Source: Patescibacteria group bacterium (GTDB taxonomy: Bacteria; Patescibacteriota; Minisyncoccia; Moranbacterales; UBA2206). From it: a stretch of DNA of 64,000 nucleotides. The notes beneath the pieces were generated by a model. That model was not told the DNA's origin. It searched no databases and saw only the letters and a list, made by a program, of their open reading frames with translations. Numbering within the stretch: position 1 is the stretch's first letter; each line of letters starts with the position of its first letter. Shown one piece after another: positions 2,071 through 63,783 of the stretch. Location: contig JAUPKF010000004.1 of assembly GCA_030837625.1 (NCBI GenBank), positions 1,075-65,074 of the forward strand, written 5' to 3'. The translations under genes were made by a program, and so were the position numbers.

Positions 2071-2139
2071 AAATTATACCATAAAAAATTAAAATCGCAT
2101 AAAACAACCTAAAAAAAGAACGGCTCCAGCCGCCCCCCT

Positions 2140-4233: not shown

Positions 4234-5040
4234 ATGAAACCTATATACATCTTGAAAATTGGGGGAAGTGTGGCCACGTATAAGAATCGACTGGGCATGT
4301 CGACAAGAAAGACGCTCTTAAAAGAGATTGGCCGTTCGATCAAAAAAGCTTTGAGAAAAGACAGTTTTGGTTTGATCTTGATTCACGGCGCCGGAGCCAT
4401 GGGACATCAACTGGCTAAAAAATATAATCTAGCTGAGGGAACCGGCATAAATCCGAAAAAATGGCGCGGAGCATTGATTTCTCGTTTAGTTAATAATAAA
4501 TTGAACGTGGATATCACGGAGATACTAGTAAGTCAGGGACTTCGAATAGCGCCAGTTCATACGGCTACGGCGATTATTCAAAAAAATAAAAAAATAGACC
4601 ACTGCGATTTAGAAATAATCAAAGAAGCCTTGTGCCAAGGATGCATCCCTCTGCTTTATGGCGAAATGGTTTTCGATGTGGAGCTGGGGATGTCGATTTG
4701 TTCTGGCGATGCCATCGCGCCATATTTGGCGGAAAAATTGGGAGCGCAAAAGATTTTTTTTGCTTCTGATATTGACGGGGTGTTTACAAAAGATCCGCAT
4801 GTCTACAAGGGCGCAAGGTTGGTAAAAAAAATTAACCTGAAGGATGTTTCTCGAAAAGCAAGCCTGACTGATTCGCACAACATTGATACTACTGGCGGTC
4901 TTTTGGGAAAAATTCAGAAACTGGATGCTAAATTTGGAAATCGTCTGAAATCGATAGAAATTTTTAATGGATTCCAAAAAGATAATTACGAGAAAATTTT
5001 TGCCGGCAAAGATTTTTCTCATACTGTAATAATTCCATAA
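4234..5040 (+). CDS. Amino-acid-kinase-family protein, most consistent with isopentenyl phosphate kinase
   Basis: 268 aa. Gly-rich N-terminus KIGGSV and HGAGAMGH motif. Size and motifs fit IPK rather than aspartokinase or UMP kinase. Immediately adjacent to ispG. Confidence 0.55.
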   Translation: MKPIYILKIGGSVATYKNRLGMSTRKTLLKEIGRSIKKALRKDSFGLILIHGAGAMGHQLAKKYNLAEGTGINPKKWRGALISRLVNNKLNVDITEILVSQGLRIAPVHTATAIIQKNKKIDHCDLEIIKEALCQGCIPLLYGEMVFDVELGMSICSGDAIAPYLAEKLGAQKIFFASDIDGVFTKDPHVYKGARLVKKINLKDVSRKASLTDSHNIDTTGGLLGKIQKLDAKFGNRLKSIEIFNGFQKDNYEKIFAGKDFSHTVIIP

Positions 5041-5051
5041 AAAAACGGCCG

Positions 5052-5537
5052 CTAGGCCGTTGCGGAAAGCTCGTTGAGCAATTCCGCTAGATGATTGTCG
5101 GTGAAGTGCTTAAGAATGGGCGCAACTTCAACGCGAATGTATTGTTGAAGAAGCTCGTCTATGGTTTTCCAGCCAGCGAACCGAATGTCAACGTCATTAG
5201 GAACGAAAGTTTCATTTGAATTACCAAGATACAAGCCGTATCCGTAAACAGTATAGATGTCGTTTCTACCGGGAATCAATTGGAAGTACGGCGCGGCAAT
5301 GTTAATGATTTTGGCTTCGCTCTTTTTAATGCCGACTTCTTCTGTAAGAAGACGCAGGATTGTTTCTTTGAAACTGCCGTCTTTTTCTTCGAATGTTTCC
5401 AGCGGAAAAGACTTCATTCCTTGAAATTTGTGGTACCGGGGTTTACTCCCAAGCTCTTCTACCGTAAAAAGCTTTAGAGAATCGTTTGCTGTTTTACTAA
5501 ACAGCAAAAAACCGACGCCAAAAATTCTTTCGCCCAT
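5052..5537 (-). CDS. NUDIX hydrolase
   Basis: Nudix box GMKSFPLETFEEKDGSFKETILRLLTEEVGI. Preferred start is the ATG at 5537 (MGERIFG), preceded by GAAGGAG. The ORF track extends the frame to 5600. Confidence 0.7.
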   Translation of the reverse strand: MGERIFGVGFLLFSKTANDSLKLFTVEELGSKPRYHKFQGMKSFPLETFEEKDGSFKETILRLLTEEVGIKKSEAKIINIAAPYFQLIPGRNDIYTVYGYGLYLGNSNETFVPNDVDIRFAGWKTIDELLQQYIRVEVAPILKHFTDNHLAELLNELSATA

Positions 5538-15052: not shown

Positions 15053-15228
15053 AAATCCGTAATCTTACCAAATTATTATTTTCTTTATTATACTATAGTT
15101 TCCTTTTCTTCCAAATACCTCTCTTTTCCCCCTCTTTATGGTTTGGATTTTTTAATTTTTAGCGAATTCCTGTTTGAAAATCCCCTCTTTACCCTTCCTT
15201 CCCTTCTCTTTAAGCTTGGATTTTATTT

Positions 15229-22504: not shown

Positions 22505-23368
22505 TCACTCCACCGTCACTCTCGCCGCCCTAATTACCCTCTCATCAATCCTATACCCTTTCTGCAGTACCTTCTTTACTCTGTTTTCTTTTGTTTCATG
22601 TTTTATGTTTCGTGCTTCATGACTGACCGCTTCCATAACCGACGGATCAAAATCATCCCCCGTCTTTACTACAATTTCCTTCACTCCGTTATCTTCCAAA
22701 ACTTTCTCCAGCTGTTTTTGAATATGCATTATCCCCGTCACCCACGGACTTGATTTCTCGCTTTCCGGAACGTGGCCAGTAGAAGCATAAAAGTTATCCA
22801 ACACCGGCAGAATTTCCAAAATCAAATTCATATTGCCGAACGCGACCAGCTCTTTCTGTGAATCCGCTTGCCGTTTTTTGTAGTTTTCAAAGTCCGCTTG
22901 GCATCTTTTCCAGCCTTCCAAATATTTTTCCGCGTTCATATGCCACACCGCTTTGGCAATGGACTTTTTCATCCAGGATTTATATTCGGCATTTTTTTCA
23001 ATATTTTCCGCCGCTTCCCACGTGTAACCATTATGTTCTTTACTAAGAATGATTTTCCCGCCTGAATATTTCACCAGATAATCGATATATACCGCCTGGT
23101 CATTGGCCGAACTGGCTTTCACAGTGTTAAGCGGCGCCACAATTTCAAACCCGACTTCGCCAAGTTCTTCGCGAATTTCCCTACCCAACGCTTCTTTCAA
23201 ACTTTCCTCCGGATCCAGTTTCCCTCCCGGAAAACTCCACTGCCCGTAATTTTTCACGAAATAGCTGCCCTTGTCTTTCATCTCCAACAGCAAAAACTTG
23301 TCCTGTTTTTCGTCATACATCACCGCCTTTACGACCGCCGACAGTTTGTATTTTTCTTTATTTTCCAT
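22505..23368 (-). CDS. grpE: NUDIX-GrpE fusion protein (nucleotide exchange factor with N-terminal Nudix domain)
   Basis: Residues 1 to about 130 carry Nudix box GGKLDPEESLKEALGREIREELGE. The C-terminal 150 aa carry GrpE motifs ADFENYKKR, LPVLDNF, GDDFDPSVMEAV. Single uninterrupted frame between hrcA and dnaK. Confidence 0.8.
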   Translation of the reverse strand: MENKEKYKLSAVVKAVMYDEKQDKFLLLEMKDKGSYFVKNYGQWSFPGGKLDPEESLKEALGREIREELGEVGFEIVAPLNTVKASSANDQAVYIDYLVKYSGGKIILSKEHNGYTWEAAENIEKNAEYKSWMKKSIAKAVWHMNAEKYLEGWKRCQADFENYKKRQADSQKELVAFGNMNLILEILPVLDNFYASTGHVPESEKSSPWVTGIMHIQKQLEKVLEDNGVKEIVVKTGDDFDPSVMEAVSHEARNIKHETKENRVKKVLQKGYRIDERVIRAARVTVE

Positions 23369-25685: not shown

Positions 25686-27674
25686 TCAATCTTTGTCTTT
25701 CTTCTTCTTTTTCTTTTTCATTTCCCCGGTTTCTTCGTCAAAAATATATTTGTCCGGATCGATTTTTCCGGTAATGGCAAATTCGTCCACTTTGACTTTC
25801 TGATAAGCCGTGAATTTTTCTTTTGGATAAAGCTCCGCCGCCTTTTCCATAAAAGCGTGCCAGATAGGAGCGGCACTGTAAACTCCGTCCGAACCGGATT
25901 TCATCGGCCGACTGTCGTTGTTTCCCGCCCAGACGCCCGCCGCAATGTCGTTCGTATAGCCGACCGTCCAACCATCTTTATATTCCTGGGTGGTTCCCGT
26001 CTTGGCCGCTACTGGCCGCCCCGACAGCCTCAAGTTTCCGGCATTTCCAAATATGGGTTTTCTGGCTTCGGTATCGGAAAGAATCGAATTTATTCTTCTG
26101 GCAATCTCAACGTCCAGCACCTGCTCATAGCGATTTTTATTTTCAAAAACAATTTGTCCGCCGCCATCAACAATCTTTGCCACCGCCAAAAGAGCGGCTT
26201 TTTTACCGTCATTGGCAAAAACTCCATAAGCGCCGGTCATTTCCAAAAGCTTCACATCTCCCCCGCCCAAAACCAGAGAAAGCCCGAAACGATTTTTGTC
26301 AGTCAGCGTCGTTATTCCCAAGCGTTCGGCCAGCTCGATTGTTTCCGGCACTCCCGCCAGCGACAATGTTTTCACGGCTGGAATGTTGAGCGACATCGAA
26401 AGGGCGCTTCGCATCGTAACCAAGCCGTGAAATTTCCCGTCGTAGTTTTTGGGAATATAGTTTTTGCCCGAACCGTCCCGACCAAAATCGGTGGGAATAT
26501 CCAAGATATATGTTTCCGGCTGGTAACCTTTCTCGAAAGCTTTAGCGTAAGCGAAAGGTTTGAAAGAAGAACCGGGCTGGCGCAAACTGGTCGCCACGTT
26601 CACTTGTCCGTCGATCTTGCCGTCAAAAAAGTCGCGGCTGCCGGCCATCGCCAAAATTTCTCCGGTTTTGGGGTTGACCGCTGCGAGCGACGCGTTTTCG
26701 GCGCCATAAGTTTTTTCGTTATACTCAGCTCCTTTTTTCACGGTTTCCTCCGCCAGCTTTTGCAATTCCCAATCCAACGTCGTAATGATCCTGAGCCCAC
26801 CAGCTTCCAACATTTCCTGGCCGTACTCTTTTTCCAACTGTTCAATAACATAAAAAACAAAGTGTGGAGCGGAAATTTCGATTTTTAACGGTTTTATTTT
26901 GGCAAGAGTTTCCGCTTCCATGGCCGAGCGCGCTTCTTCTTCGCCGGCCAATCCCAATTCCGCCATCCTTCTCAGAACATATTCCTTCCGAGCGATGAGA
27001 TCTTCCTTGTGATTCCCGTGCGGAGAATAATAGGTAGTAGCTTTGGGCAGAGCGGCCAAAAGCGCCGCTTCATCCAGCGTCAAATCCAGAGCTTTTTTTC
27101 CGAAAAACCATTCCGAAGCTTGTCCGATTCCGCAAACGTTGGAACCGTAAGAAATATTATTAAGATAGGCGTCCAAAATTTCATCTTTGGAAAAATTGTT
27201 TTCAATTTTGACCGCCATCAAAACTTCTTTTATTTTCCGCTCAAAAGTTTTCTCCCGGGTGAAAAAAACATTCCGAGCGAGTTGTTGGGTGATAGTCGAA
27301 CCGCCTTGCTCTATTTTTCCGCTCTCGACGTTCGCCCGAGCCGCCCGGACCATAGACGCCGCGTCAAATCCGTTATGATTGTAAAAGTTATCATCCTCCG
27401 CGGCAATGGCCGCCAAGCGAGCGATGTCCGGAATTTGGTCATGCGGCAAAATTTTCCGATTTTCGTTGCCGTGAATTTCATAAAGAATATGCTCCCCGGT
27501 CCGGTCGTATATCGTCGAAGTCTCCGGAAAATCCATCTCTCCGAGAACTTTGGCGTCGGGCGTATCGGCATAAAGAAAAGTCAGTACGCCCAAAAGCGCC
27601 CCGATTGCGATAACAATCGAAGCCGCCAAGACAAGTCCGAAAGATTCCAAGGTTGTAACGACTATTTTTCGCAT
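25686..27674 (-). CDS. Class A penicillin-binding protein (bifunctional transglycosylase/transpeptidase)
   Basis: N-terminal TM. Glycosyltransferase motifs EDDNFYNHNG and GGSTITQQLARN. Transpeptidase SxxK-like region and KTGTT. Confidence 0.9.
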   Translation of the reverse strand: MRKIVVTTLESFGLVLAASIVIAIGALLGVLTFLYADTPDAKVLGEMDFPETSTIYDRTGEHILYEIHGNENRKILPHDQIPDIARLAAIAAEDDNFYNHNGFDAASMVRAARANVESGKIEQGGSTITQQLARNVFFTREKTFERKIKEVLMAVKIENNFSKDEILDAYLNNISYGSNVCGIGQASEWFFGKKALDLTLDEAALLAALPKATTYYSPHGNHKEDLIARKEYVLRRMAELGLAGEEEARSAMEAETLAKIKPLKIEISAPHFVFYVIEQLEKEYGQEMLEAGGLRIITTLDWELQKLAEETVKKGAEYNEKTYGAENASLAAVNPKTGEILAMAGSRDFFDGKIDGQVNVATSLRQPGSSFKPFAYAKAFEKGYQPETYILDIPTDFGRDGSGKNYIPKNYDGKFHGLVTMRSALSMSLNIPAVKTLSLAGVPETIELAERLGITTLTDKNRFGLSLVLGGGDVKLLEMTGAYGVFANDGKKAALLAVAKIVDGGGQIVFENKNRYEQVLDVEIARRINSILSDTEARKPIFGNAGNLRLSGRPVAAKTGTTQEYKDGWTVGYTNDIAAGVWAGNNDSRPMKSGSDGVYSAAPIWHAFMEKAAELYPKEKFTAYQKVKVDEFAITGKIDPDKYIFDEETGEMKKKKKKKDKD

Positions 27675-27821
27675 TTATTCAGACCTCCGAGGTCTGCGGC
27701 CGCAGACCTCGGAGGTCAATTTGATTCGTCTATACTAGTTATAGCAGGTATTGCCGTATTCGTAAAAAATACGCATAAAAAAACAGCTCCGAACTGTTTT
27801 TATTACAAAACATCAATCGCT

Positions 27822-29501: not shown

Positions 29502-29862
29502 TGTTTTATATCTTCTAAATTTCTAGTTTAGCTAATACTACCAGTGCCCCCAAATAATGTCAACAAGCATTGACATTTTAAAAAACAGGCTGCCCGCGCC
29601 TGCTTTGAAAAAAGATACCCGATAAATTTGATTATTTTTTCAACTTCTTCACCGTCTTAGGCATCGCTATCGTTTTCGTGACGTCAGCAAAATGATCAGG
29701 AGCCTTTTATTCAGCTTTTTATAGATGAAAACAGAGTTTGACAAATAGCTAAAGTCATTATACCATAGCACTTCAGTTCTTTTCGTTTTAAATAGGCAAC
29801 AACTGGCCAAAAACCATCTGAAATATAACAGAACTTTCACTTGAATTCAGAAGGAGAAAAGC

Positions 29863-31877: not shown

Positions 31878-31894
31878 AAATATTCCCGATGCGA

Positions 31895-32010
31895 ATCAAC
31901 GAATTATATCCGAATCTACAAATAGCGCTCGCTCGTACCTTCCTTCGGAAACTGCCTCAATATTATTCGTAAATTCGCATTCATTCGTTGATTCGAATCG
32001 GTTTTTTAAC
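31895..32010. repeat. ATTCG-type palindromic intergenic element (ftsE-ftsX spacer)
   Basis: Terminal inverted repeats gatgcgaatcaacgaatta and attcgttgattcgaatcg. Inner atccgaatctacaaata and attattcgtaaattcgc match other copies. Confidence 0.6.
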
Positions 32011-50484: not shown

Positions 50485-50556
50485 CACGGGATGCAGGAAT
50501 CGAACCTGCGTCGCCGGTTTTGGAGACCGGCATAATAGCCACTATACGAATCCCGC
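50485..50556 (-). tRNA. tRNA-Trp (anticodon CCA)
   Basis: Minus strand GCGGGAT...CCGGT-CTCCAAA-ACCGG...GCAGG-TTCGATT-CCTGC-ATCCCGT. The D-stem is weak (3 bp). Confidence 0.75.
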
Positions 50557-50733
50557 CCGCCGCATTTCCTTTTGATATTAAATCAATAATACTTTGTCGA
50601 TAGATAATCCATAATCGGGGAGTAATAACTTCATATATCGTTAGGAAATGCCGCGGGCACGCCCATATTATCAAAAATGCAGGCACGCCCGAAATCCATA
50701 AATTAGGCAAACTTTTTTGCCTTATGAACTTTC

Positions 50734-50889
50734 CTACTTCACCTCTTTATGATTTACATGCTTTTTGCATTTCTTGCAAAACTTTTTCATTTCCAGCTTT
50801 TCCTTGAGCTTTTTCTTATTTCTGGATGTGAAATAATTGGTAGTCTTGCAAACTTCGCACCTCATTTTGACTAGATTTTCTCGCGCCAT
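50734..50889 (-). CDS. rpmG: 50S ribosomal protein L33
   Basis: 51 aa [51 protein letters not shown] with the CxxC...CxxC zinc ribbon. Below the ORF-track size cutoff. The tRNA-Trp then rpmG arrangement is conserved. Confidence 0.8.
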
Positions 50890-50904
50890 AACAAAATAGT
50901 ATCA

Positions 50905-51004
50905 GGTATTATGTATAAAGTATAAAGTATCGCTCAAAAGCAATCTCCATACAACTCCATACATTATACTTTCTACATTATACTTTATACTTTATACTTT
51001 ATAC
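50905..51004. repeat. AT-rich heptamer-array inverted repeat between rpmG and tRNA-Thr(GGT)
   Basis: Left arm tgtataaagtataaagtat, right arm atactttatactttatactttatact (four copies of atacttt). The arms are reverse complements. Confidence 0.7.
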
Positions 51005-51011
51005 TTGCCTG

Positions 51012-51084
51012 AGCCGTTGTCCGGAATCGAACCGGAGACCTACTCCTTACCATGGAGTTGCTCTACCAGCTGAGCTACAACGGC
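51012..51084 (-). tRNA. tRNA-Thr (anticodon GGT)
   Basis: GCCGTTG-TA-GCTC-AGCTGGTA-GAGC-A-ACTCC-ATGGTAA-GGAGT-AGGTC-TCCGG-TTCGATT-CCGGA-CAACGGC-T. Confidence 0.85.
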
Positions 51085-51187
51085 CTGCCAGATTTGCTCA
51101 CTTCATTATCTAGTTCCAACCATTCGAATTAAATAAACCCGAATTATTGGTTAATACTGTTTAAAAAAAATAAGCAAATCATGCAGG

Positions 51188-51270
51188 TGGGCCGGGCAGG
51201 ATTCGAACCTGCGAAGCCTTACGACGGCTGATTTACAGTCAGCTGCGATTGACCACTCCGCCACCGACCC
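51188..51270 (-). tRNA. tRNA-Tyr (anticodon GTA)
   Basis: GGGTCGG...GCTGA-CTGTAAA-TCAGC plus a 14-nt variable arm, T-arm GCAGG-TTCGAAT-CCTGC, acceptor CCGGCCC. Confidence 0.85.
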
Positions 51271-51381
51271 AACTTCATGCAACATAAAGCATGAAACATA
51301 AAACACAATTCCGATTCTATATTAACATTCTTCTTACAAAAAAACACTCCAGCGTTTCCACATCGCATGATTAACAAATCC

Positions 51382-51581
51382 GAGCCGGCTGTCAGACTTG
51401 AACTGACGACCTTCATTCACCCCGCACCACTTGCCGATGAGCCGAAGATCGGACTTGAACCGATAACCTTCACTTTACAAAAGTGTTGCTCTACCATTGA
51501 GCTACTTCGGCAAATGGTGCGGGGCAAGCAAAAGTGTTGCTCCCTGCCTGCCGGCAGGCAGGTACCACTGAGCTAAGCCGG
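51382..51581 (-). other. Split or interrupted tRNA-Thr-like gene enclosing tRNA-Thr(TGT)
   Basis: Minus strand 51581 to 51511 reads GCCGGCT-TA-GCTC-AGTGGTA-[cctgcctgccggcaggcagg]-GAGC-A-ACACT-TTTG..., a tRNA 5' half with a 20-nt perfect palindrome in the D-loop. Minus strand 51411 to 51382 reads AGGTC-GTCAG-TTCAAGT-CTGAC-AGCCGGC-T, a matching T-arm and 3' acceptor. A 10-bp helix CCCCGCACCA/TGGTGCGGGG flanks the embedded tRNA. Confidence 0.45.
51439..51510 (-). tRNA. tRNA-Thr (anticodon TGT), nested inside a split tRNA-like locus
   Basis: GCCGAAG-TA-GCTC-AATGGTA-GAGC-A-ACACT-TTTGTAA-AGTGA-AGGTT-ATCGG-TTCAAGT-CCGAT-CTTCGGC-T, with one A-A mismatch at the base of the anticodon stem. Confidence 0.75.
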
Positions 51582-53074: not shown

Positions 53075-53179
53075 AAATAATTACTCGCTAAAGTAGAACT
53101 AATTTAAGCGAATAGAAGCGAATTTGCTAAAAATAATTAGCTCGCATTCGCTTTCGTTCGCTCGGCTTTCGCGAGTCTG

Positions 53180-54870: not shown

Positions 54871-55167
54871 ATGAAAAAAAATACCCATCCCAAATATTAT
54901 TCCACCGCTAAGATAGCCTGCGCTTGCGGGAACGTCATTGAGGCTGGTTCAACCGTGCCGGAAATGAAAGTGGAAATCTGCTCGTCTTGCCATCCATTCT
55001 ACACCGGCAAGAAGAAACTTTTGGATGTCACCGGAAGAGTTGACCGATTCAAGAAAATGGCCGAGAAAGCTACCGAGAAGAAAACCGCCGTTTCCAAGAA
55101 GAAAGCGCGCGTCAGAAAGCCCAAGGCTGAAACGAAGAAAGTTGTTTCCAAGAAAAAGAAAAAGTGA
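54871..55167 (+). CDS. rpmE: 50S ribosomal protein L31 (with Lys-rich C-terminal tail)
   Basis: [21 protein letters not shown]...[10 protein letters not shown] zinc ribbon. C-terminal K-rich extension. Confidence 0.85.
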
Positions 55168-55227
55168 CGACGAAGTCGTCATCCTGAGGATGTTTCGCTT
55201 TTGCGAAACAGACGAAGGATCTATCGT

Positions 55228-55258
55228 CGACATAAAAAAGACAGGCCTATAGCCTGTC
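55228..55258. terminator. Bidirectional intrinsic terminator after rpmE
   Basis: aaaaaagacaggctatagcctgtcttttttg. Confidence 0.8.
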
Positions 55259-55308
55259 TTTTTTGTCATAATCAGTATCGTGTATGATATTCCTCCACTT
55301 CTGAAAAT

Positions 55309-55764
55309 TTATCGCTTCGCCCACTGCGGCGCTCGGCGGGCTTTTAGAAGTCCGGGTTTTTTGCGTTCCACCACTCTGGCGTCTCGCGTCAGAAATCCCC
55401 GATCACGAAGAGCTTTACGCAAAGTTTCATCGAATTTAACCAGGGCTCGCGCGATCCCTAATCGGATGGCTTCCGCCTGGGCATTAATTCCGCCTCCCGC
55501 AACGTGGACCGAAACATCAAACTTTCCTTCTTGCCCGGCAGAAACAATCGGCGACTTTACCGCGTCGCGCAACCGAAACAACGGGAAGTATTCGTCCATC
55601 TTTTTATCATTTACCAAAATTCCCTTGTCCAGCTTCTCGACCGGGTATATCCTCACCTGCGCCACGGCAGTTTTTCTCCGCCCGACAGCGCAGTAATATT
55701 TTTCGGCTTTTACTGTTTCTTCAGCAGTTTCTTTTGGTTCAGGCTTGATTTTCTTTGTAACCAT
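55309..55764 (-). CDS. rpsI: 30S ribosomal protein S9
   Basis: GGGINAQAEAIRLGIARAL...KARRAPQWAKR C-terminus. Confidence 0.9.
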   Translation of the reverse strand: MVTKKIKPEPKETAEETVKAEKYYCAVGRRKTAVAQVRIYPVEKLDKGILVNDKKMDEYFPLFRLRDAVKSPIVSAGQEGKFDVSVHVAGGGINAQAEAIRLGIARALVKFDETLRKALRDRGFLTRDARVVERKKPGLLKARRAPQWAKR

Positions 55765-55774
55765 ACGTATAAAT

Positions 55775-55950
55775 TTCTAATTCACCTAATTTCTAATTCA
55801 CCTAATAAAATTCAATAATTTCTAATAGCAAAATAAAATGTTAAATACCCAATTAAACTTTTTTGAATTTGGCATTAAAAATTTTATTTGACCTTGCTTA
55901 TTTTGGAATTTTATTAGGTGAATTAGGTAATTAGACAATTAGGTGAATTT
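55775..55950. repeat. Long-range inverted repeat in the rplM-rpsI spacer
   Basis: Two direct copies of tttctaattcacctaat at 55775..55815 and two inverted copies (attaggtgaatt) at 55905..55950, enclosing about 90 AT-rich nt. Confidence 0.65.
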
Positions 55951-56355
55951 TCAATGCGTCACTTCTATCTTATGTTGATGATTATTATCCTTATATATCA
56001 GTAGCCTTTTGATCATTCTGTCCCGTAGCTTGTTTTTAGGAAGCATCCCCCAAACCGCGTCGCGAATAACTTTCTCCGACTCGCTTTCCATTCTGTCTCC
56101 CAGTTTTTTGGTGCTTATCCCGCCGGGATATCCGCTAAACTTGTGGTAAAGTTTTCCCTCCATTTTATTGCCAGTTATTCGAAACTTGTCAGAATTGATA
56201 ACTACCGCGAAATCACCGCCGTCGATATGCGGCGCGAAGTCCACCTTATTTTTCCCGCGAAGAACCGAGGCGATTTCCGTCGCCAGTCTTCCCGGGGATT
56301 TGTCCTCGGCGTCAAACAAATGATATTTTCTATTAATTTGGTTTACTTTAGACAT
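55951..56355 (-). CDS. rplM: 50S ribosomal protein L13
   Basis: 134 aa, typical L13 sequence (PGRLATEIASVLRGK...). Confidence 0.9.
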   Translation of the reverse strand: MSKVNQINRKYHLFDAEDKSPGRLATEIASVLRGKNKVDFAPHIDGGDFAVVINSDKFRITGNKMEGKLYHKFSGYPGGISTKKLGDRMESESEKVIRDAVWGMLPKNKLRDRMIKRLLIYKDNNHQHKIEVTH

Positions 56356-56511
56356 ATCGTAGTTATTAAGGGTTTTCGTATTTCGCTTTTTTCGCCCGCC
56401 TGCTTCGAAATGACAATTGGTTGCTTAGTGCCGACACGATTAGCTAATTCAGCTCGTGAGTTATTATTAACACCAGTTAGTATCGAAGCATTTCGGGCAG
56501 GTATTTCGTAA

Positions 56512-56874
56512 CTATACGAATTCAATTACCGCTTTCTTCGCGCCATCGCTTTTGCGAGGCGCCAGTTTTATTATTCTGGCGTAGCCGCTACCCCTCTTTT
56601 CAAACTTAGCCAAAAACTCTCCAGTTATTTTCTTGACAGCCATAGCAGGAATGAACGTCCGCAAATTCCTGACAATCGCCAGCTTCTTTTTTTCATCTCC
56701 GGTCTTTTTAGCCTTATTTATGATTCTATCAATCTTCCTTCTTAGTTCCTTGGCTTTTGCCTCCGTGGTCTCTATCTTTTCGTGCATAATCAAACTGCCC
56801 AGCATTGTCCGGAATAAAGCCTTCCTTTGGTCCTTGTCTCGACTCAATTTTCTGTCGCTTCGTAAGTGTTTCAT
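56512..56874 (-). CDS. rplQ: 50S ribosomal protein L17
   Basis: MKHLRSDRKLSRDKDQRKALFRTM..., an L17 N-terminus. Confidence 0.9.
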   Translation of the reverse strand: MKHLRSDRKLSRDKDQRKALFRTMLGSLIMHEKIETTEAKAKELRRKIDRIINKAKKTGDEKKKLAIVRNLRTFIPAMAVKKITGEFLAKFEKRGSGYARIIKLAPRKSDGAKKAVIEFV

Positions 56875-56884
56875 TTCTTTTTGG

Positions 56885-57889
56885 TTACTCCGCTTTCTTC
56901 AAATTAACGCCAAAGTCACCGATTGCCTTCTTAATTTCTTTAATGCCCTTAGCTCCCATTCCTTCCAATCCGCCCAACTGTTCTTCAGTCAGCTTCAGGA
57001 TGTCTCCGACCTTGGAAATATTGCCTTTCTCTAAAACATTCAATGTCCTGGTAGACAAGCTCTTCAGTTCAGCTATTTCAACTTTCTTTGGATCCATCTC
57101 GACTTTCTTACCTTCTTCTTTCTCTTCAACTTTATCCTCGACAATTTCCTCCTTAAGCGCTTTTTCCTTTCCAGCCGCCTGGACATCCTTCAAAACGGAA
57201 AATTGATCCACCAAAATACCGACTGCCTTCGAAAAAGCTTCCTCTGGATCTATGCTTCCATCAGTCATAATTTCTAAATTTATCTTTTCAAAATCAGTCC
57301 TTTTCCCCACGCGCATATTGGAAATAGCATAGTTGACTCTTTTTATGGGAGTATAAATCGCATCCATTGCAATCACGCCAACTTCTTTTTTCTCCCTGTT
57401 TTGCTGTTCCACAGGAACATAACCGATACCTCCCGCCACTTCCATTTCCATCTCAATCTCTCCCTTGGCGCCAGTGATAGTAGCAATGTGGGCTTCTTTA
57501 TTAACCACTTCGACATCTGAAGAGCATTCGATCATTCCCGCATTAATTTTCTTCTCTCCTTTAATCTTAAGCTGAACCCTTACCGATTCATCCTTATGAA
57601 GACGAAATCGAACCTGCTTCAAATTCAAAATTATCTGGATCACGTCTTCTAGAACATTAGGGATGGTAGAAAACTCATGCTTAACACCCTTGATGCTCAC
57701 TGACGTTATAGCCGCTCCGGAAAGCGAAGAAAGCAACACCCTTCTTAGCGCATTTCCCAATGTTGTCCCGTATCCAGGATAACACCCTTCTATCTCAAAG
57801 TTTCCCGTTTTATCATCAATCATCTTAAACTTTGGTTTTTGAGGAAGTGTAATTTGCATAAATTTCACGTAACACGTATCACGTAACAT
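56885..57889 (-). CDS. rpoA: DNA-directed RNA polymerase alpha subunit
   Basis: 334 aa. N-terminal dimerisation domain. C-terminal alpha-CTD (LEELELSVRS-like ELKSLSTRTLNVLEKGNI). Confidence 0.9.
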   Translation of the reverse strand: MLRDTCYVKFMQITLPQKPKFKMIDDKTGNFEIEGCYPGYGTTLGNALRRVLLSSLSGAAITSVSIKGVKHEFSTIPNVLEDVIQIILNLKQVRFRLHKDESVRVQLKIKGEKKINAGMIECSSDVEVVNKEAHIATITGAKGEIEMEMEVAGGIGYVPVEQQNREKKEVGVIAMDAIYTPIKRVNYAISNMRVGKRTDFEKINLEIMTDGSIDPEEAFSKAVGILVDQFSVLKDVQAAGKEKALKEEIVEDKVEEKEEGKKVEMDPKKVEIAELKSLSTRTLNVLEKGNISKVGDILKLTEEQLGGLEGMGAKGIKEIKKAIGDFGVNLKKAE

Positions 57890-57950
57890 GGAACAAGAAA
57901 TCCCGTGTTATGTGTTATGTGCTGTGTGTTATGTGTTATGTATTTACCTA
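57862..57950. repeat. Heptamer-array hairpin element (rpoA-rpsD spacer); paralog at 59205..59282
   Basis: cacgtaacacgtatcacgtaacatggaacaa ... tgttatgtgttatgtgctgtgtgttatgtgttatgt. The 5' arm pairs with the tgttatg x5 arm using G-U wobbles. Confidence 0.7.
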
Positions 57951-58576
57951 GAATAATATTCCACTACGATTTGCGGATCAGCATTAACACCCATCTGCGC
58001 CCTTTCGGGGCGGTTATTTATAGTCGCTTCCAAACTCTTTGCGTCAAAACCGATCCAAGCCGGAAAATCTTTCTTATTCCTAAGAGCCTGGGCTGTATTT
58101 TTAAAATAGTTTTTCTCTTTTTTGTAAGAGTCTTGGGAAATTTTCTGTCCAATTTTTACTTCGTATGAAGGAATGGTCACTTTTTTCCCGTTGACGCTTA
58201 TCAGACCGTGATTCACTAGCTGTCTGGCTTGAGAGCGAGAACTGGCAAATCCAATCCGGTACACCACGTTGTCCAATCGCATCTCCAGTCTCTCTAAAAG
58301 AAGATCTCCGGTAATTCCCTTTTTCTTTTTTACTTCATCAAAATGCCTTCGAAACTGGGCTTCCAAAACGCCATAAATCCTCTTAATTTTTTGTTTGACA
58401 GAAAGTTGCGTCCCGTATTCGCTAAGACCGCGCTTCATTTTTTTTCCGTGGACTCCCGGAGCATAAGCACGCTTAACTACTCCGCATTTTGGAGTATAGC
58501 AACGGTCGCCTTTGAGAAAAAGCTTTTCTCCGGCTCTCCGGCATTTTCTACATTTTGGATCAATATCTCGTGCCAT
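57944..58576 (-). CDS. rpsD: 30S ribosomal protein S4
   Basis: MARDIDPKCRKCRRAGEKLFLKGDRCYTPKC zinc-finger N-terminus. ATG at 58576. The ORF-track extension to 58588 begins on a non-ATG codon. Confidence 0.9.
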   Translation of the reverse strand: MARDIDPKCRKCRRAGEKLFLKGDRCYTPKCGVVKRAYAPGVHGKKMKRGLSEYGTQLSVKQKIKRIYGVLEAQFRRHFDEVKKKKGITGDLLLERLEMRLDNVVYRIGFASSRSQARQLVNHGLISVNGKKVTIPSYEVKIGQKISQDSYKKEKNYFKNTAQALRNKKDFPAWIGFDAKSLEATINNRPERAQMGVNADPQIVVEYYSR

Positions 58577-58588
58577 AATTATATACAC

Positions 58589-58685
58589 CGATCCGAATCT
58601 ACGAATATATCCGAATTCACGAATTTCTTATTCGCGTAATTCGTAGATTCGTAGATTCGAATGTCATTCGTAGATTCGCATCGCG
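58589..58685. repeat. ATTCG-type palindromic intergenic element (rpsK-rpsD spacer)
   Basis: ccgatccgaatctacgaatatatccgaattcacgaatttcttattcgcgtaattcgtagattcgtagattcgaatgtcattcgtagattcgc. Its ends are inverted copies of each other. Confidence 0.65.
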
Positions 58686-59210
58686 TTATACTCTTCGGGG
58701 TTTTTTGGGCCGGCATCCATTATGTGGAATCGGCGTTATGTCTTTTATCAAATTTAAATCAAAACCATTATTGGCTAGGGCCCTAATGGAAGCCTCTCTG
58801 CCGGAACCGACTCCTTTCACAAAAACATCCAACTCCCGCACTCCATATTTCCTAACTTTTTCACTCACATTCGCCACTACCTGAGTCGCGGCATAAGGAG
58901 TAGCCTTTTTAGCTCCCTTAAATCCAAGCAACCCCGAAGTAGCCCACCCCAAAACTCCACCGCTCAAGTCCGTTATACTGACAGAGGTGTTATTGTAAGT
59001 GCATTTTACCATCGCTTTTCCCTTAAGCACTTGCCTCTTAGCTTTCTTTATTTTTTTAATTTTCTCGGCTTCCACTTCGGTTTTTTCTTTCAAATCAACA
59101 GCGATGTCTCCCTTTCCCACTTCCACTTTCAAATCCCCAGCCTTCTCCGCCGTCTTCTGCTTTTCTTCTATTTTAATCTTCTTATCTTCCTCCATGTCAT
59201 CACGCAACAC
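58686..59210 (-). CDS. rpsK: 30S ribosomal protein S11 (with K/E-rich N-terminal extension)
   Basis: Conserved core ...GLLGFKGAKKATPYAAT... ending in the C-terminal RRV. 45-aa extension. Confidence 0.9.
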   Translation of the reverse strand: MLRDDMEEDKKIKIEEKQKTAEKAGDLKVEVGKGDIAVDLKEKTEVEAEKIKKIKKAKRQVLKGKAMVKCTYNNTSVSITDLSGGVLGWATSGLLGFKGAKKATPYAATQVVANVSEKVRKYGVRELDVFVKGVGSGREASIRALANNGFDLNLIKDITPIPHNGCRPKKPRRV

Positions 59211-59282
59211 GTATCACGTAACATGGAACAAAATACGAATCCGATGTTATGTGTTATGTGTTATGTGTTATGTGATTTAGGT
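59205..59282. repeat. Heptamer-array hairpin element (rpsM-rpsK spacer), copy 2
   Basis: catcacgcaacacgtatcacgtaacatggaacaa ... tgttatgtgttatgtgttatgtgttatgtga. Confidence 0.7.
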
Positions 59283-59663
59283 TTTTTCCGTCTTGACTCT
59301 TCCCGAACCCATCGTTCGCCTGACATTTCCCCGAACAGTCCGGTTGTTTGTCTTGGTCCTTTGTCCTCTCGTCGGAAGACCCCTTTGATGCCGAACTCCG
59401 CGATAGCAGCCAATTTCTTTCAGCCGCTTCACATTATCTCTGACGATATGTTTGAGTTCGCCTTCAACCTTCACTGTTTTTTCTATATAACTTCTAATTT
59501 CATTTTGTTCTTCTTCGGACAAATCTTTGGTTCTTTTGAGTTTGGAAATCTTCAATTCGTCCAAAATTTTGGACGCGGTTGTCTGCCCTATGCCATAAAT
59601 ATAGGTCAAAGATATTTCTATTCTTTTTTCGTCCGGAATATTAACTCCTGATATTCTTAACAT
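59277..59663 (-). CDS. rpsM: 30S ribosomal protein S13
   Basis: [26 protein letters not shown]... Confidence 0.9.
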
Positions 59664-59752
59664 ATTTTACCGATTCGAATCTTCGAATACATTCGAATTC
59701 ACGAATCTACAAATTATTCGTATGGGCGCATTCGTAGCGCGCTATTCGCATG
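59664..59752. repeat. ATTCG-type palindromic intergenic element (rpmJ-rpsM spacer)
   Basis: ccgattcgaatcttcgaatacattcgaattcacgaatctacaaattattcgtatgggcgcattcgtagcgcgctattcgcatgc. Shares gaattcacgaat and ctacaaat...ttattcgta with other copies. Confidence 0.65.
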
Positions 59753-59866
59753 CTATCCTTGGCGTTGCTTGTGCTTTGGATTGGAACAAATCACGTAAAG
59801 TTTTCCTTTACGCTTGACTGTCTTGCACTTATCACAAATCTTTTTCACTGACGCTCTCACTTTCAT
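59753..59866 (-). CDS. rpmJ: 50S ribosomal protein L36
   Basis: [37 protein letters not shown], 37 aa, below the ORF-track size cutoff. Confidence 0.85.
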
Positions 59867-59870
59867 ATTT

Positions 59871-60107
59871 TTATAGTCTTTTGGTTATTCTTCCCTTAGT
59901 CAAATCATACGGACTCATTTCTACCAAAACTTTGTCGCCTGGAATTAGTCTTATATAATTAACCCTCATTCTGCCGGAAATATGAGCTAAAATCTCATGT
60001 CCATTGCTTAACTTAACCTTAAAAGTCGTGCTTGGCAAGGTTTCCATCACTTCGCCTTCTAATTTTACCAGCTCTTTATCGTTAGCCATAGGCGGATTTT
60101 TTTCCAA
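59871..60107 (-). CDS. infA: Translation initiation factor IF-1
   Basis: S1-like OB fold ...[57 protein letters not shown]... Confidence 0.9.
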
Positions 60108-60285
60108 ACTAAAACGCTGAGAGAAATAAGTCCAAATTCCGGAAAAACTTTCCCTCTACTAAAAGCTTTATTGTGTTTTTCAATGTCTTAGACTATCTTA
60201 ACTCGTATGTCATTCTCTGTCAACCCCGTTAGAGATATTCTCGCTAGGAGCCCTCTCTTCAGAGACACCAAGCGCAACATTATCA

Positions 60286-62322
60286 TCAATCTCTAACGGG
60301 GTCAAGCACCACTTCTACCCGCCTCTCATAAGACGGAATTCTATTAGAAAAGAAGTTTGGCCAGTACATAACCTCGACTTTCTCAATATCTGGATAAGTG
60401 CTCAGATACTCTTCCAAATCAGCGTTGTTTTTGCCAAGGATATTTTTTTTCAAATTATTCAGATCTATGCTAGCGGAAATTTCTCCAGTGCCACCCACTT
60501 TTATGTCTAAGGAACCAGTCTTGAAATCGGGACTGGATTTGCCGTATGTCAGCCTAATAGAGCCTATATCAATCTTCGACTCCCCATTTCCTGATTTTTC
60601 GATCAAACGATTGACCATATTCTTCAAATCGCTTTCCTTGAAAATAATTATTTGAGCTTTCGACTGGATTGAAATTTCGAAATTATCGGTTACCTCTCCC
60701 ACTGAATTAGAGATTTTGTAAGTTGGCTCTTCGACGAACAAAGCGTCGTCCAAGATAACCGCATCCTGCCCGACATCTTCTTTGATTTTTTGCTTCAACG
60801 CCCCGTTGAACTCCGCCAAAATTTTTTTCTTGGCAGTGTCGATATCCTCTTGAGAAACCGAGCTGGCTTCCTGTCCGTCACCGCCTCCTCCGGACATAGC
60901 CTTAGCCGAAACGGCGTAAAATTTGACATACTTGTCTGCCCCGCTATCTTTGAACCCGGGAATAGAAAACTTCCCCGGACCGATATTATAGGATTGACCC
61001 GCTTCGTCCGCAACCACGTCAGCCTCGATAACTCCCGGCTTTGTTTCCTCTCCGACTTTGGTTGTTCCTGGAACCGTTACTCCCGCCGCCAAACGGAACA
61101 ATTTCCCGTCCTCACTGACGAATCTCGTGGTAGCCACAAGCGGCTGGGGACTTGAGCCAAATTCATTGTAAATAGTTATTGTCCCTCTGGCTTTTTGTCC
61201 GGAAACAGAACTCTTTCCGCTAGAGCCATACTTCTTTGAAACTTCATGTTCAATTGCCAACAACTTTGAAGGAATGGCTTCTTTCTCATAATCAACTTCC
61301 GAATAACTTGGATCGCCTTTTATGAGAGTATCTATCGACTTTGTCTTCTCCTTGACCGATATAGACACTGTGGCCTTTGGAATGAAAAGATAGCCAGCCA
61401 CAGCCAGAAGCGCTACAACAAACATCGCCCCAAAAGCCAAAAACAAGCGGTTAAAACTGCCGGAAATTTTTTCGCTGCCAAAAACATTTTTTTCTTTTTT
61501 CTGGATTGGCGCCGACTTTCCCTCTGAATTTCCGAAAACTCCATCATACAAGGTGGGATATCCGCCGGCAGCAGAGTCTGCACTATTGCGCGATTTAGTT
61601 CCGCTAAAAAAGTTTTCTATCTTCTTGTCTTCCGGTAAAGAAGCGGCCTCTCTTCCTGCTGATATTTGGTTGCCTACTGATAGTCGCTGAGTTCCGCCAC
61701 CGCCGAAAACATCCATAGCCGTAACTCTTTTAAGCATCCCTCCCGAAGATTTTTCACCTCTCCCGAGTCCAAGCGTCCGGGGTGTCCTATTGACATCACT
61801 GTCCGTCCCCAATACTAGCTCCCGGTTAACTATCCTCTCCTGACCCCTTTCATTTTCAGTTTTGTCAATGGGAGATTTGTCCGACTCTCTACCTATCTCA
61901 GGAGTCTCCGATTCTCCGGTAAAATAGTTATCAGATCCCATTTTCTCTATCCTTTCTTTTATTCCCTTTTTGTCTTCAATGTTTTCGGAAATATCCGAAA
62001 CGTTTTTTTTCAATTCTGATCCCGTTTCAACTCCCTCCTTGCCGGGAAGCATCTCTTCATCAGAAATATCATCAAGTTTTTGCTGGACCAAAATTCCGGC
62101 TTTTTCAATAAGAAGCTTGCCTAACTTGTCTTGCGTCACGATCATAAGCTGAAGTCCGAGGATTTCCGCCTCTTTCTTGAGAACTCGCAAATTTATTATA
62201 CTCTGAATAAGCAACGCTCGCTTAGGCACTACCATGATTATCTCCTCTGCTCGGGATTTCCTCAACCGCTCCACAATAGAAGTTATCTCCTCGTCAATGT
62301 CGATGTAAAATGTTTGATGCAT
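60286..62322 (-). CDS. Large bitopic hypothetical protein (cytoplasmic N-domain, one TM, Gly/Ser-rich extracytoplasmic C-domain)
   Basis: Preferred start MHQTFYIDIDEEITSIVERLRKS (ATG 62322). The ORF-track extension to 62370 starts on GTG within the repeat element. TM LFLAFGAMFVVALLAVAGYLFI. Sits between ftsA and infA. Confidence 0.55.
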   Translation of the reverse strand: MHQTFYIDIDEEITSIVERLRKSRAEEIIMVVPKRALLIQSIINLRVLKKEAEILGLQLMIVTQDKLGKLLIEKAGILVQQKLDDISDEEMLPGKEGVETGSELKKNVSDISENIEDKKGIKERIEKMGSDNYFTGESETPEIGRESDKSPIDKTENERGQERIVNRELVLGTDSDVNRTPRTLGLGRGEKSSGGMLKRVTAMDVFGGGGTQRLSVGNQISAGREAASLPEDKKIENFFSGTKSRNSADSAAGGYPTLYDGVFGNSEGKSAPIQKKEKNVFGSEKISGSFNRLFLAFGAMFVVALLAVAGYLFIPKATVSISVKEKTKSIDTLIKGDPSYSEVDYEKEAIPSKLLAIEHEVSKKYGSSGKSSVSGQKARGTITIYNEFGSSPQPLVATTRFVSEDGKLFRLAAGVTVPGTTKVGEETKPGVIEADVVADEAGQSYNIGPGKFSIPGFKDSGADKYVKFYAVSAKAMSGGGGDGQEASSVSQEDIDTAKKKILAEFNGALKQKIKEDVGQDAVILDDALFVEEPTYKISNSVGEVTDNFEISIQSKAQIIIFKESDLKNMVNRLIEKSGNGESKIDIGSIRLTYGKSSPDFKTGSLDIKVGGTGEISASIDLNNLKKNILGKNNADLEEYLSTYPDIEKVEVMYWPNFFSNRIPSYERRVEVVLDPVRD

Positions 62323-62334
62323 AAATTTAAACGA

Positions 62335-62420
62335 ATTTTTACGAATTATAAACGAATTTGCGCGAATCACGAATTCGTGCTTCGTGAAAATTCGTTTCCT
62401 ATTCGTATTTATTCGTCTAT
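62335..62420. repeat. ATTCG-type palindromic element centred on CACGAATTCGTG (ftsA to downstream gene spacer)
   Basis: aaacgaatttttacgaattataaacgaatttgcgcgaatcacgaattcgtgcttcgtgaaaattcgtttcctattcgtatttattcgtc. The left arm has acgaatt repeats and the right arm has aattcgt repeats. Confidence 0.65.
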
Positions 62421-62421
62421 C

Positions 62422-63690: not shown

Positions 63691-63783
63691 CGAGTTTTAT
63701 TTAATTATACCATAAAAATAAAAAGAAGCCACGGCGCGATATTGCCATGACTAGTCGCAGTTTCATATTATACATTTCGTGTT

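Follow-up and report, generated by a model that had tools for sequence, protein, structure and literature searches.

We describe two elements, E1 and E2, that fill two spacers of a ribosomal protein operon in a 64-kb stretch of DNA (hereafter the window). The source organism belongs to Candidatus Moranbacteria, and an identical 2.2-kb contig is present in SRR24011159. Each element is a palindrome whose arms are tandem arrays of seven-base units. They are best read as slippage-prone palindromic repeat modules, similar to repetitive extragenic palindromic (REP) sequences and copied locally between spacers. The full reading has three parts, which we judge jointly to have about an even chance of being correct: that E1 and E2 are copies of dispersed palindromic heptamer-array repeats, produced at the DNA level by slippage and copying and transcribed passively; that this E family is found in short spacers between genes of Candidatus Moranbacteria and of allied bacteria of the candidate phyla radiation (CPR); and that the unequal folding of the two strands reflects the mutational history of the element, not selection for a plus-strand RNA.

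Heptamer-array palindromes between ribosomal protein genes

The genes infA, rpmJ, rpsM, rpsK, rpsD, rpoA and rplQ form a block that lies wholly on the minus strand, with spacer elements ordered F2-E2-F1-E1 along the operon. The elements and the genes that border E1 and E2 are as follows.

E1, 57860-57943: the whole rpsD-rpoA spacer; heptamer-array palindrome with its main stem at 57866-57935 on the plus strand
E1 arm A, 57866-57891, plus strand: units CACGTAA, CACGTAT and CACGTAA, then CATGG (CACGTAACACGTATCACGTAACATGG)
E1 arm B, 57903-57941, plus strand: CCG(TGTTATG)n with five units, of which one is mutated to TGCTGTG
E2, 59196-59276: the whole rpsM-rpsK spacer; paralogue of E1 with its stem at 59199-59276 on the plus strand
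E2 arm A, 59201-59226, plus strand: units CACGCAA, CACGTAT and CACGTAA, then CATGG (CACGCAACACGTATCACGTAACATGG)
E2 arm B, 59241-59276, plus strand: CCGA, four TGTTATG units, then TGAT
F1, 58577-58685: rpsK-rpsD spacer; second palindrome family, with arms CGAATCTACGAAT / ATTCGTAGATTCG
F2, 59664-59752: rpmJ-rpsM spacer; paralogue of F1, 89% identical over 38 nt
rpsM (S13), 59277-59663, minus strand: TAA stop directly adjoining E2
rpsK (S11), 58686-59195, minus strand: start ATG at 59195, 3 nt from the E2 stem base
rpsD (S4), 57944-58576, minus strand: stop 8 nt from the E1 stem base
rpoA, 56885-57859, minus strand: start ATG at 57859, 6 nt (AAATTT) from the E1 stem base

On the plus strand, E1 and E2 share a single layout: (CACGTAN)3-CATGG, a loop of 12-18 nt, and then (TGTTATG)4-5. 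Identity between the two elements is 97% over 32 nt in the 5' arms and 89% over 37 nt in the 3' arms; both arm patterns are unique to these two sites in the 64 kb, with a chance expectation of 0. Tandem Repeats Finder (TRF) recovered arm B of E1 as a period-7 array (GTGTTAT/TGTTATG) of 5.3 copies at 57905-57941, and that of E2 as 4.3 copies of TGTTATG with 100% matches at 59245-59274. An initial annotation, made from the sequence alone, had described two paralogous elements built of heptamer arrays in these two spacers, and these data bear that description out. The alternating spacers hold the second family, F1 and F2, which is built of ATTCGTAG / CGAATCTACGAAT units and folds equally on either strand (-40.5 and -39.1 kcal/mol for F1).

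Both E elements extend from a stop codon to a few bases short of the next start codon. Stem bases lie 0-16 nt from the stop codon and 2-12 nt from the start codon in every family that we saw. The spacer limits of 57860-57943 and 59196-59276 follow from corrected starts, at ATG 57859 for rpoA and ATG 59195 for rpsK. The open reading frame (ORF) caller had listed longer versions (57889 for rpoA, 59210 for rpsK), with in-frame N-terminal extensions (MLRD...) that run through the 3' arm. We treated these extensions as artefacts because orthologues start MQ(I/S)ITLPQ and M(A/E)E(D/E), and because the reading is out of frame in L094, a syntenic relative described below.

How might such elements arise? 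Their units would expand and contract by replication slippage, and the inverted arm and the local copies would come from template switching or other short-range copying, acting between the two arms and from one spacer to its neighbours. Among the slippage-prone repeats of bacteria, seven-base units are the commonest class (PMC4679880), and a general excess of 7-nt simple repeats in bacteria is attributed to Mrazek et al. (2007) where PMC4679880 cites that work. Period-7 arrays make up 17 of the 32 non-redundant tandem arrays in the window, vs 18 of 83 in non-CPR control loci, and the density of tandem arrays is 2.6 times lower in 430 kb of those loci than in the window. The modules would be tolerated between tightly coupled genes because they bring no terminator and present stops at their 5' side on either strand; the mRNA sense of E1 arm B is (CACATAA)n, which gives TAA stops in all three frames. 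They would be passively co-transcribed in the rpsM-rpsK-rpsD-rpoA-rplQ mRNA, there forming a moderately stable, mismatched stem-loop of about -20 kcal/mol, at most an intercistronic stem-loop of the REP type. That the stems reach so near to stop and start codons is expected of insertion into the coupling spacers of 2-45 nt found in relatives.

Turnover among relatives and a wider family

The closest relative is L002 (RIFOXYA12_FULL_44_15), whose S4 and RpoA are each 95% identical to those of the window. It has hairpins in all four spacers, but their sequence is unrelated to the window's, and the E arms are absent. The rpsM-rpsK and rpsD-rpoA spacers of L002 carry two near-identical copies of a CGAAT/ATTTG type, which favour the sense strand (sense vs antisense, -29.8 vs -20.3 and -26.3 vs -14.1); alternating with them, in the rpmJ-rpsM and rpsK-rpsD spacers, are two copies of an ACAGAA type. 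L094 is syntenic and more distant than L002 (S4 75%, RpoA 81%). It has an E-type element, (CACGTAG)3 / (TGTTATG)4, in its rpsD-rpoA spacer and a CGAA-type hairpin instead in rpsM-rpsK. Conservation of the arms in relatives, whose absence the initial annotation had counted among the results that would refute it, is therefore mixed: they are missing from the closest relative and present in a more distant one. Other Moranbacteria (S4 63-76%) have spacers of 2-45 nt without an element, or other heptamer hairpins (ATAGCTT/AAGCTAA in L108, ATGTTATAG/TTACAACAA in L004), and L113 has an F-type element at a different position.

Elements have thus been gained, lost and replaced wholesale between close relatives, and in each genome near-identical copies occupy alternate spacers of one operon, separated by 1.0-1.3 kb. 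Replacement of spacer palindromes thus outpaces the divergence of the ribosomal proteins. E2 is most simply seen as a recent copy of E1. In the simplest history, an E-type element would have been present first in the rpsD-rpoA spacer and then copied to rpsM-rpsK in the window lineage, while in L002 it would have been overwritten by a copy of that lineage's rpsM-rpsK element. The alternating pattern of two families is common to the window and L002, with different sequences.

To look beyond the operon, metagenomes were scanned with the pattern (CACGTAN)2 ... (TGTTATG)2. This yielded 18 contigs of 36-47% GC, representing about 13 distinct contexts, all intergenic. The family has the form 5'-(CACRTAN)n - short loop - (NTAYGTG)m-3', and Pfam assigns the genes flanking its copies to FtsA/FtsZ, PBP, LeuRS, LysRS, AtpF, GroEL, LytR, T4SS pilins and SBP. 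A scan of viral contigs found no copy of the family.

Further copies on the same contigs were sought with an unbiased regular expression for (CAYRTAN) arrays of at least two units. Arrays occupy 4-5 spacers along the 13.6 kb of L088. In L087, an uncultured CPR-like contig, ftsA and ftsZ are separated by a CACRTAA array of 30 units (210 nt; 4953-5194), whose 14-nt and 7-nt sub-blocks indicate stepwise block duplication. In L086 the array reaches 18 units or more and shows a 14-nt superperiod. Arm size ranges from 2 to 30 units across the family, some CAYRTAN arrays are single or direct instead of inverted, and CG-type (CACGTAN) and CA-type (CACATAN) units are mixed within one arm in further copies. 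CACGTAG units occur in L094, L088 and L089; E1 and E2 carry GTAA or GTAT.

The orientation of the family is also mixed. The strand that can form G-U pairs is antisense to the genes in seven contexts (the window with L094, L082, L087, L091, L093, L097, L098), sense in five (L083, L086, L088, L089, L099) and ambiguous in two (L090, L096). The strand assignments of the flanking genes agree with GC skew. An explanation through the replication strand was considered and discarded: the skew only follows the coding strand, and the mixed orientation was confirmed.

Three smaller observations belong here. In L083 an E-type palindrome immediately precedes the orthologue of the window's tRNA at 51012-51084. 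The rpmJ-proximal part of F2, CATGCGAATAGCGCGCTACGAATGCGCCC (59724-59752, 29 nt, after rpmJ), is a small GC-rich hairpin that recurs with 28 of 29 positions identical in the rpmJ-rpsM spacer of L094, where the remainder of the spacer differs; on this identity it may be a genuinely conserved element. In the more distant Moranbacteria L003 and L005 (for example L003 2868-2994), a non-palindromic motif, TTAGGGATTTATAAT / ATTAGAGATTTAT, recurs immediately upstream of several start codons of the same operon and may be an internal promoter or translation signal.

Strand asymmetry and possible RNA roles

G-U pairing in E1 and E2 is possible on the plus strand only, as the initial annotation had observed. 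Folded as RNA, E1 reaches -30.4 kcal/mol (z -4.2) on the plus strand and -20.4 (z -3.4) on the minus strand, which is the mRNA sense; the corresponding values for E2 are -29.6 (z -3.7) and -21.4 (z -2.1). Folded as DNA, the plus and minus strands give -14.3 and -9.6 for E1, and -14.7 and -9.5 for E2. Either strand folds more stably than shuffled sequences.

The arms consist of CACGTAA on one side and the complement of CACATAA on the other, giving in each unit a G-T pair on the plus strand and an A-C mismatch on the minus strand. The asymmetry therefore comes down to one transition, G vs A at unit position 4, repeated along a whole arm and presumably spread there by the same array dynamics. Because E2 looks like a copy of E1 and there is one G/A difference per unit, the wobbles would represent one or two events rather than independent covariations, and one or two events of this sort would fall on the same strand by chance with a probability of one half to one quarter. 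As the wobbles trace to so few shared events, the asymmetry is too weak to support the inference of an antisense RNA. Nor do family members in general share the one-strand pairing of E1 and E2; L094 carries two such transitions. A general caution follows, that periodic G-U wobbles in a stem built of repeats cannot count as independent signs of an RNA. Deamination of CpG or methylation of ACGT was also considered as the source of the CG vs TG arms and rejected, since neither sequence is depleted (CpG odds 1.24; ACGT observed/expected 0.87).

From the asymmetry the initial annotation had proposed either antisense transcripts or a function at the level of DNA. An origin at the DNA level is compatible with our data; the antisense inference found no support. 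In its explicit form, a plus-strand transcript would fold into the G-U hairpin and target the ribosomal operon as an antisense or small RNA, which we consider very improbable. It would account for a plus-strand fold that, in E1 and E2, beats the sense fold by 9-10 kcal/mol, and for the same-site element of L094, whose antisense fold is better by about 25-28 kcal/mol and in which a further position of the unit also differs as G-T on the same strand. Yet the family is oriented antisense in seven contexts and sense in five, the asymmetry is absent in other copies, units of the two types are mixed, and the wobbles reduce to one or two homogenised, inherited events, a chance outcome of roughly 1 in 4. 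In the closest relative there is no copy of the element. A scan for promoter and terminator consensus sequences found no site on either strand of E1 (57860-57943) or E2 (59196-59276), with no sigma-70-like site in or beside them on the plus strand and no adjacent terminator. On the sense strand, the stems are followed by GAAATTTATG and GACATG, and not by the U tract that with a G+C-rich stem would mark a terminator.

Searches for known RNAs were equally negative. At the gathering threshold, Rfam matches in the window were limited to 6 tRNAs; an E-value scan of 55100-60400 gave sub-threshold matches only (miRNA-precursor-like and others), none near the gathering score, and neither an Rfam family nor a ribosomal-protein autoregulatory leader was recognised in the elements. 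Covariation among homologous elements, a check that the initial annotation had recommended, also spoke against a selected RNA. RNAalifold on 14 family members gave a covariation term of +0.58, with a double change in only 1 of 20 pairs, in an alignment biased by a search pattern that fixed two units per arm. At unit position 7, T is unpaired 14 times and compensated twice, and G is opposite T 9 times and opposite C 3 times. The structure of an antisense RNA is thus not conserved across homologues, either in orientation or in compensatory change.

Could selection have given the hairpins a role in the operon mRNA itself? In one version, the stem base would join stop and start codons, and so keep translational coupling across spacers of 80-110 nt that lack a Shine-Dalgarno (SD) sequence; in another, the hairpins would serve as stem-loops for mRNA stabilisation or processing and thereby adjust the stoichiometry of the proteins made from the operon. 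The stems cover nearly the whole spacer in every family, with the stop and start codons as close as described above, no SD sequence was seen upstream of rpoA, rpsK or rpsM, and element-free relatives have coupling spacers of 2-20 nt. Most hairpin spacers, moreover, fold better in the sense direction (16 vs 6, plus E1 and E2). We nevertheless rate a selected RNA function as quite unlikely. The sense folds of E1, E2 and above all L094 are poor (-20, -21 and -13 kcal/mol), and the last of these rules out a general role for the sense RNA. Insertion into a short spacer would by itself produce the geometry, many relatives have no element at all, the arms do not covary, and single, non-palindromic arrays of the same CACRTAN unit also exist.

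Possible mobility, known systems and other repeats of the window

Several observations weigh against repeats that merely slip and are copied. We infer the slippage and template-switching steps, and with them the lack of a selected function, rather than observing them; the number of units does not vary among eight contigs of the L002 species, which are essentially clonal and hence uninformative. Inverted pairs are all of one polarity, with CACRTAN first. A 127-nt stretch of L082 (4810-4936) is 100% identical to L084; it comprises the element and 60 nt of flank, running from the start of a DUF2283-like gene through an E-type palindrome to the end of a DUF4258-like gene, and the gene next to it is only 86% identical. 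From this comparison the identity could reflect constraint, or else recent exchange or local recombination. The L094 element forms a 25-bp helix on the antisense strand (-38.6 to -41.7 kcal/mol) and is almost unfoldable in sense (-13.4 kcal/mol). Finally, contigs of 36-47% GC all retain the heptamer unit even as spacers turn over fast, which is not easily explained by purely neutral slippage and suggests mobility or a sequence-specific partner. Fixed polarity, persistence of the unit, the L082/L084 identity and L094 leave room for three alternatives: mobilisation of a single-stranded DNA (ssDNA) hairpin, a sequence-specific binding partner or, less likely, the selected RNA role discussed above.

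In the first, a strand-specific enzyme, such as a REP/RAYT-like Y1 transposase or an attC-like system, would mobilise the elements as ssDNA hairpins. It would recognise the strand kept folded by G-T mismatches, so that the copying of E1 to E2 and the L002 copies would be transpositions. A dispersed multi-copy family with conserved termini (TCACGTA...TACGTGA) and fixed polarity is what such an enzyme might leave behind. The DNA hairpin is indeed stabler on one strand, whole spacers are swapped for a different family between close relatives, the insertions lie in what were very short ancestral spacers, and some units (L094, L088) contain GTAG. Against this, no transposase domain was found among the 10 ORFs of the 13.6-kb multi-copy contig L088, and inspection by eye revealed no consistent target-site duplication in the flanks. 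Copies lie preferentially 1.0-1.3 kb away in one operon, a better fit to template switching, and orientation is mixed with respect to both coding strand and GC skew. By eye, the attC core (RYYYAAC / GTTRRRY) does not fit the units. We therefore think mobilisation of this kind unlikely.

A broader form of the same idea, which strikes us as rather improbable, is that these are CPR-wide, self-propagating spacer modules, suited to compact operons with tight coupling, that move as a strand-specific ssDNA hairpin with the G-T-tolerant strand active, in a REP/RAYT-like system with a putative hairpin-handling enzyme. With (CACRTAA)n first, giving TAA in all three frames, and a stop-free (TTAYGTG)m second on either strand, insertion in either orientation would be harmless. 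If correct, this would place a REP/RAYT-like system in bacteria with few known mobile elements.

Alternatively, the arrays could be platforms for a single-strand nucleic-acid binding protein (Csp/S1-like), with one unit per monomer and the palindrome secondary. Conservation of the unit over diverse contigs and the existence of direct, non-inverted arrays are both in keeping with a platform, and a similar role has been proposed before for TAACTGA arrays that lie upstream of the SD-less S4, L3 and S1 genes (PMC4679880). We regard this as markedly unlikely, given the many unrelated units in one genome, the swapping of unit families at the same site in the closest relatives, and the occurrence of both orientations, through which mRNA would show different sequences.

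Returning to slippage and local copying, the elements can be set beside known repeats. REP/BIME sequences and the REPIN-RAYT system are short, imperfect, multi-copy extragenic palindromes of proteobacteria, lineage-specific and found in both orientations. E elements resemble them as short imperfect intergenic palindromes, often between co-transcribed genes and co-transcribed as stem-loops, and in being multi-copy, lineage-specific and inserted in either orientation. They differ in that their arms are tandem 7-nt arrays whose copy number ranges from 2 to 30, and in that no RAYT gene was seen (transposase domains were checked in the 10 ORFs of L088). REP families reach tens to hundreds of copies in one genome; E elements number 2 in the 64 kb here, a low count, and fill 4-5 spacers in 13.6 kb of L088. 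The GTAG head typical of REP occurs in some E unit variants only, and not in E1 or E2.

Co-transcribed hairpins similar to miniature inverted-repeat transposable elements (MITEs) include Correia, ERIC and RUP. Repetitive hairpin-forming elements also occur in sponge mitochondria (PMC2800124). Like these, E elements invade the intergenic DNA of compact genomes and are patchy among relatives. Unlike MITEs, they have arms made of tandem arrays and no signature of terminal inverted repeats with a target duplication, and no related autonomous element was seen: the termini TCACGTA/TACGTGA are the repeat unit itself, the flanks show no consistent duplication, and L088 has no visible insertion sequence. 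Integron attC sites were rejected as a match, as the units ACGTAAC and GTTATGT are off the core consensus and the flanking genes are essential ribosomal and RNA polymerase genes.

A closer parallel in unit size is provided by the intergenic direct-repeat arrays of TAACTGA in Beggiatoaceae, Cyanobacteria and Bacteroidetes (MacGregor 2015, PMC4679880). Both are intergenic arrays whose 7-nt units contain stop codons and which lie shortly before SD-less start codons; both occur in ribosomal-protein operons, for example upstream of S4; and in both the unit is common to unrelated genomes. E1 and E2 qualify as heptanucleotide arrays of this sort, ending 3-6 nt from the rpsK and rpoA start codons without an SD sequence. 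However, the TAACTGA arrays are otherwise direct, with one indirect set among 170 in BOGUAY (PMC4679880), whereas the E unit, CACRTAN, typically forms an inverted hairpin pair, and one genome contains many unit families. Intercistronic stem-loops right after stop codons are known from operons for complex subunits that undergo selective RNA processing and stabilisation (PMC4423207, PMC8219983). E1 and E2 share that placement, but where those accounts present stem-loops that are conserved and energy-tuned in sense, E1 and E2 fold worse in sense, turn over and do not covary. Template switching can make perfect inverted repeats and copy arms at the DNA level without selection on RNA (Monttinen and Loytynoja 2022, PMC8794818). 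That case concerns rRNA and other functional stems; here switching is a conjecture, and correction from arm to arm is evidently incomplete.

None of the known systems compared has inverted arrays of 7-nt units as its standard form, and a literature search for CPR intergenic repeats found no description of them. The E-type palindromes thus belong to a kind already known (REP-like, or heptamer arrays), in an inverted heptamer-array form that is apparently undescribed in CPR. The genomes of these bacteria are very small, and hardly any work exists on the non-coding DNA in them. In the core ribosomal operon described here, palindromes of 7-base arrays fill most intercistronic spacers and are swapped between species with 95% identical ribosomal proteins; one unit family recurs in many groundwater genomes. 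Recurrence and swapping point to a strong, lineage-typical process that generates or spreads repeats. The elements bear on translational coupling in SD-poor genomes, and they affect assembly and strain typing because the units form variable-number arrays.

Annotation is affected as well, since the start codons of rpoA, rpsK and a 694-aa ORF are over-extended into repeats. In the last case, a CGAAT-type palindrome (62328-62419) takes up the spacer that precedes the ORF (window 62322-62421) and the called GTG start, 62370, sits inside the repeat; the L094 orthologue begins MHQTFYIDIDEE, and by that comparison translation probably starts at the ATG near 62322.

Many other spacers in the window have hairpins whose arms are tandem arrays of 7-9 nt units, and unrelated units (CACGTAA, ATTCGTAG, AGTATAA, AAATCCA and CTAATTCAC) coexist in this one genome. 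Two of the arrays, in ATACTTT and TACATAATACATTC, had been pointed out in the initial annotation and were found again, and its view that E1 and E2 are related to further heptamer arrays of the window is borne out.

22374/22467: array hairpin
30852/30942: array hairpin
31892-31995 and 54829: ATTCG arrays
33976/34043: array hairpin
44834-44864: TRF-type tandem array, TACATAATACATTC x2.2
45143-45226: array hairpin
50898/50959: array hairpin; ATACTTT x6.9 at 50959-51006 pairs with AGTATAA x4.7 at 50898-50930
53083-53176: array hairpin
55777/55875: array hairpin
62328-62419: array hairpin

The region 50485-51511 is a minus-strand cluster of tRNA genes with heptamer-array hairpins between the genes. 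E-like arrays (CATGAAA / CACGAAA / CATAAAA in gene sense) also occur inside predicted ORFs, at 22592-22621 and 44970-44997. The first lies in the C-terminal end of ORF 22505-23368; the second lies within a doubtful 115-aa ORF, 44861-45208, in whose region there is also a 41-nt AT-rich palindrome (45143-45225). This region may be non-coding.

A promoter-like motif resembling an extended -10 element, TATGGTATAAT, occurs six times on the gene strand of the window, vs 0.7 expected; none of the six is inside the rpmJ-rplQ block.

2073-2083, minus strand: TATGGTATAAT
15087-15097, minus strand: TATGGTATAAT
29757-29767, minus strand: TATGGTATAAT
41213-41223, minus strand: TATGGTATAAT
45223-45233, minus strand: TATGGTATAAT
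63704-63714, minus strand: TATGGTATAAT

In some cases it lies just 3-20 nt upstream of an annotated start codon, a spacing that suggests very short leaders, leaderless mRNAs or mis-called starts. Two further palindromes differ in kind from the AT-rich heptamer hairpins: GACCTCCGAGGTCTGCGGCCGCAGACCTCGGAGGTC, a perfect, G+C-rich palindrome of 36 nt at 27682-27717, just upstream of the start of the gene at 25686-27674, and TCCGCCATAGGCGGA/TCCGCCTATGGCGGA at 42309-42364, next to a tRNA.

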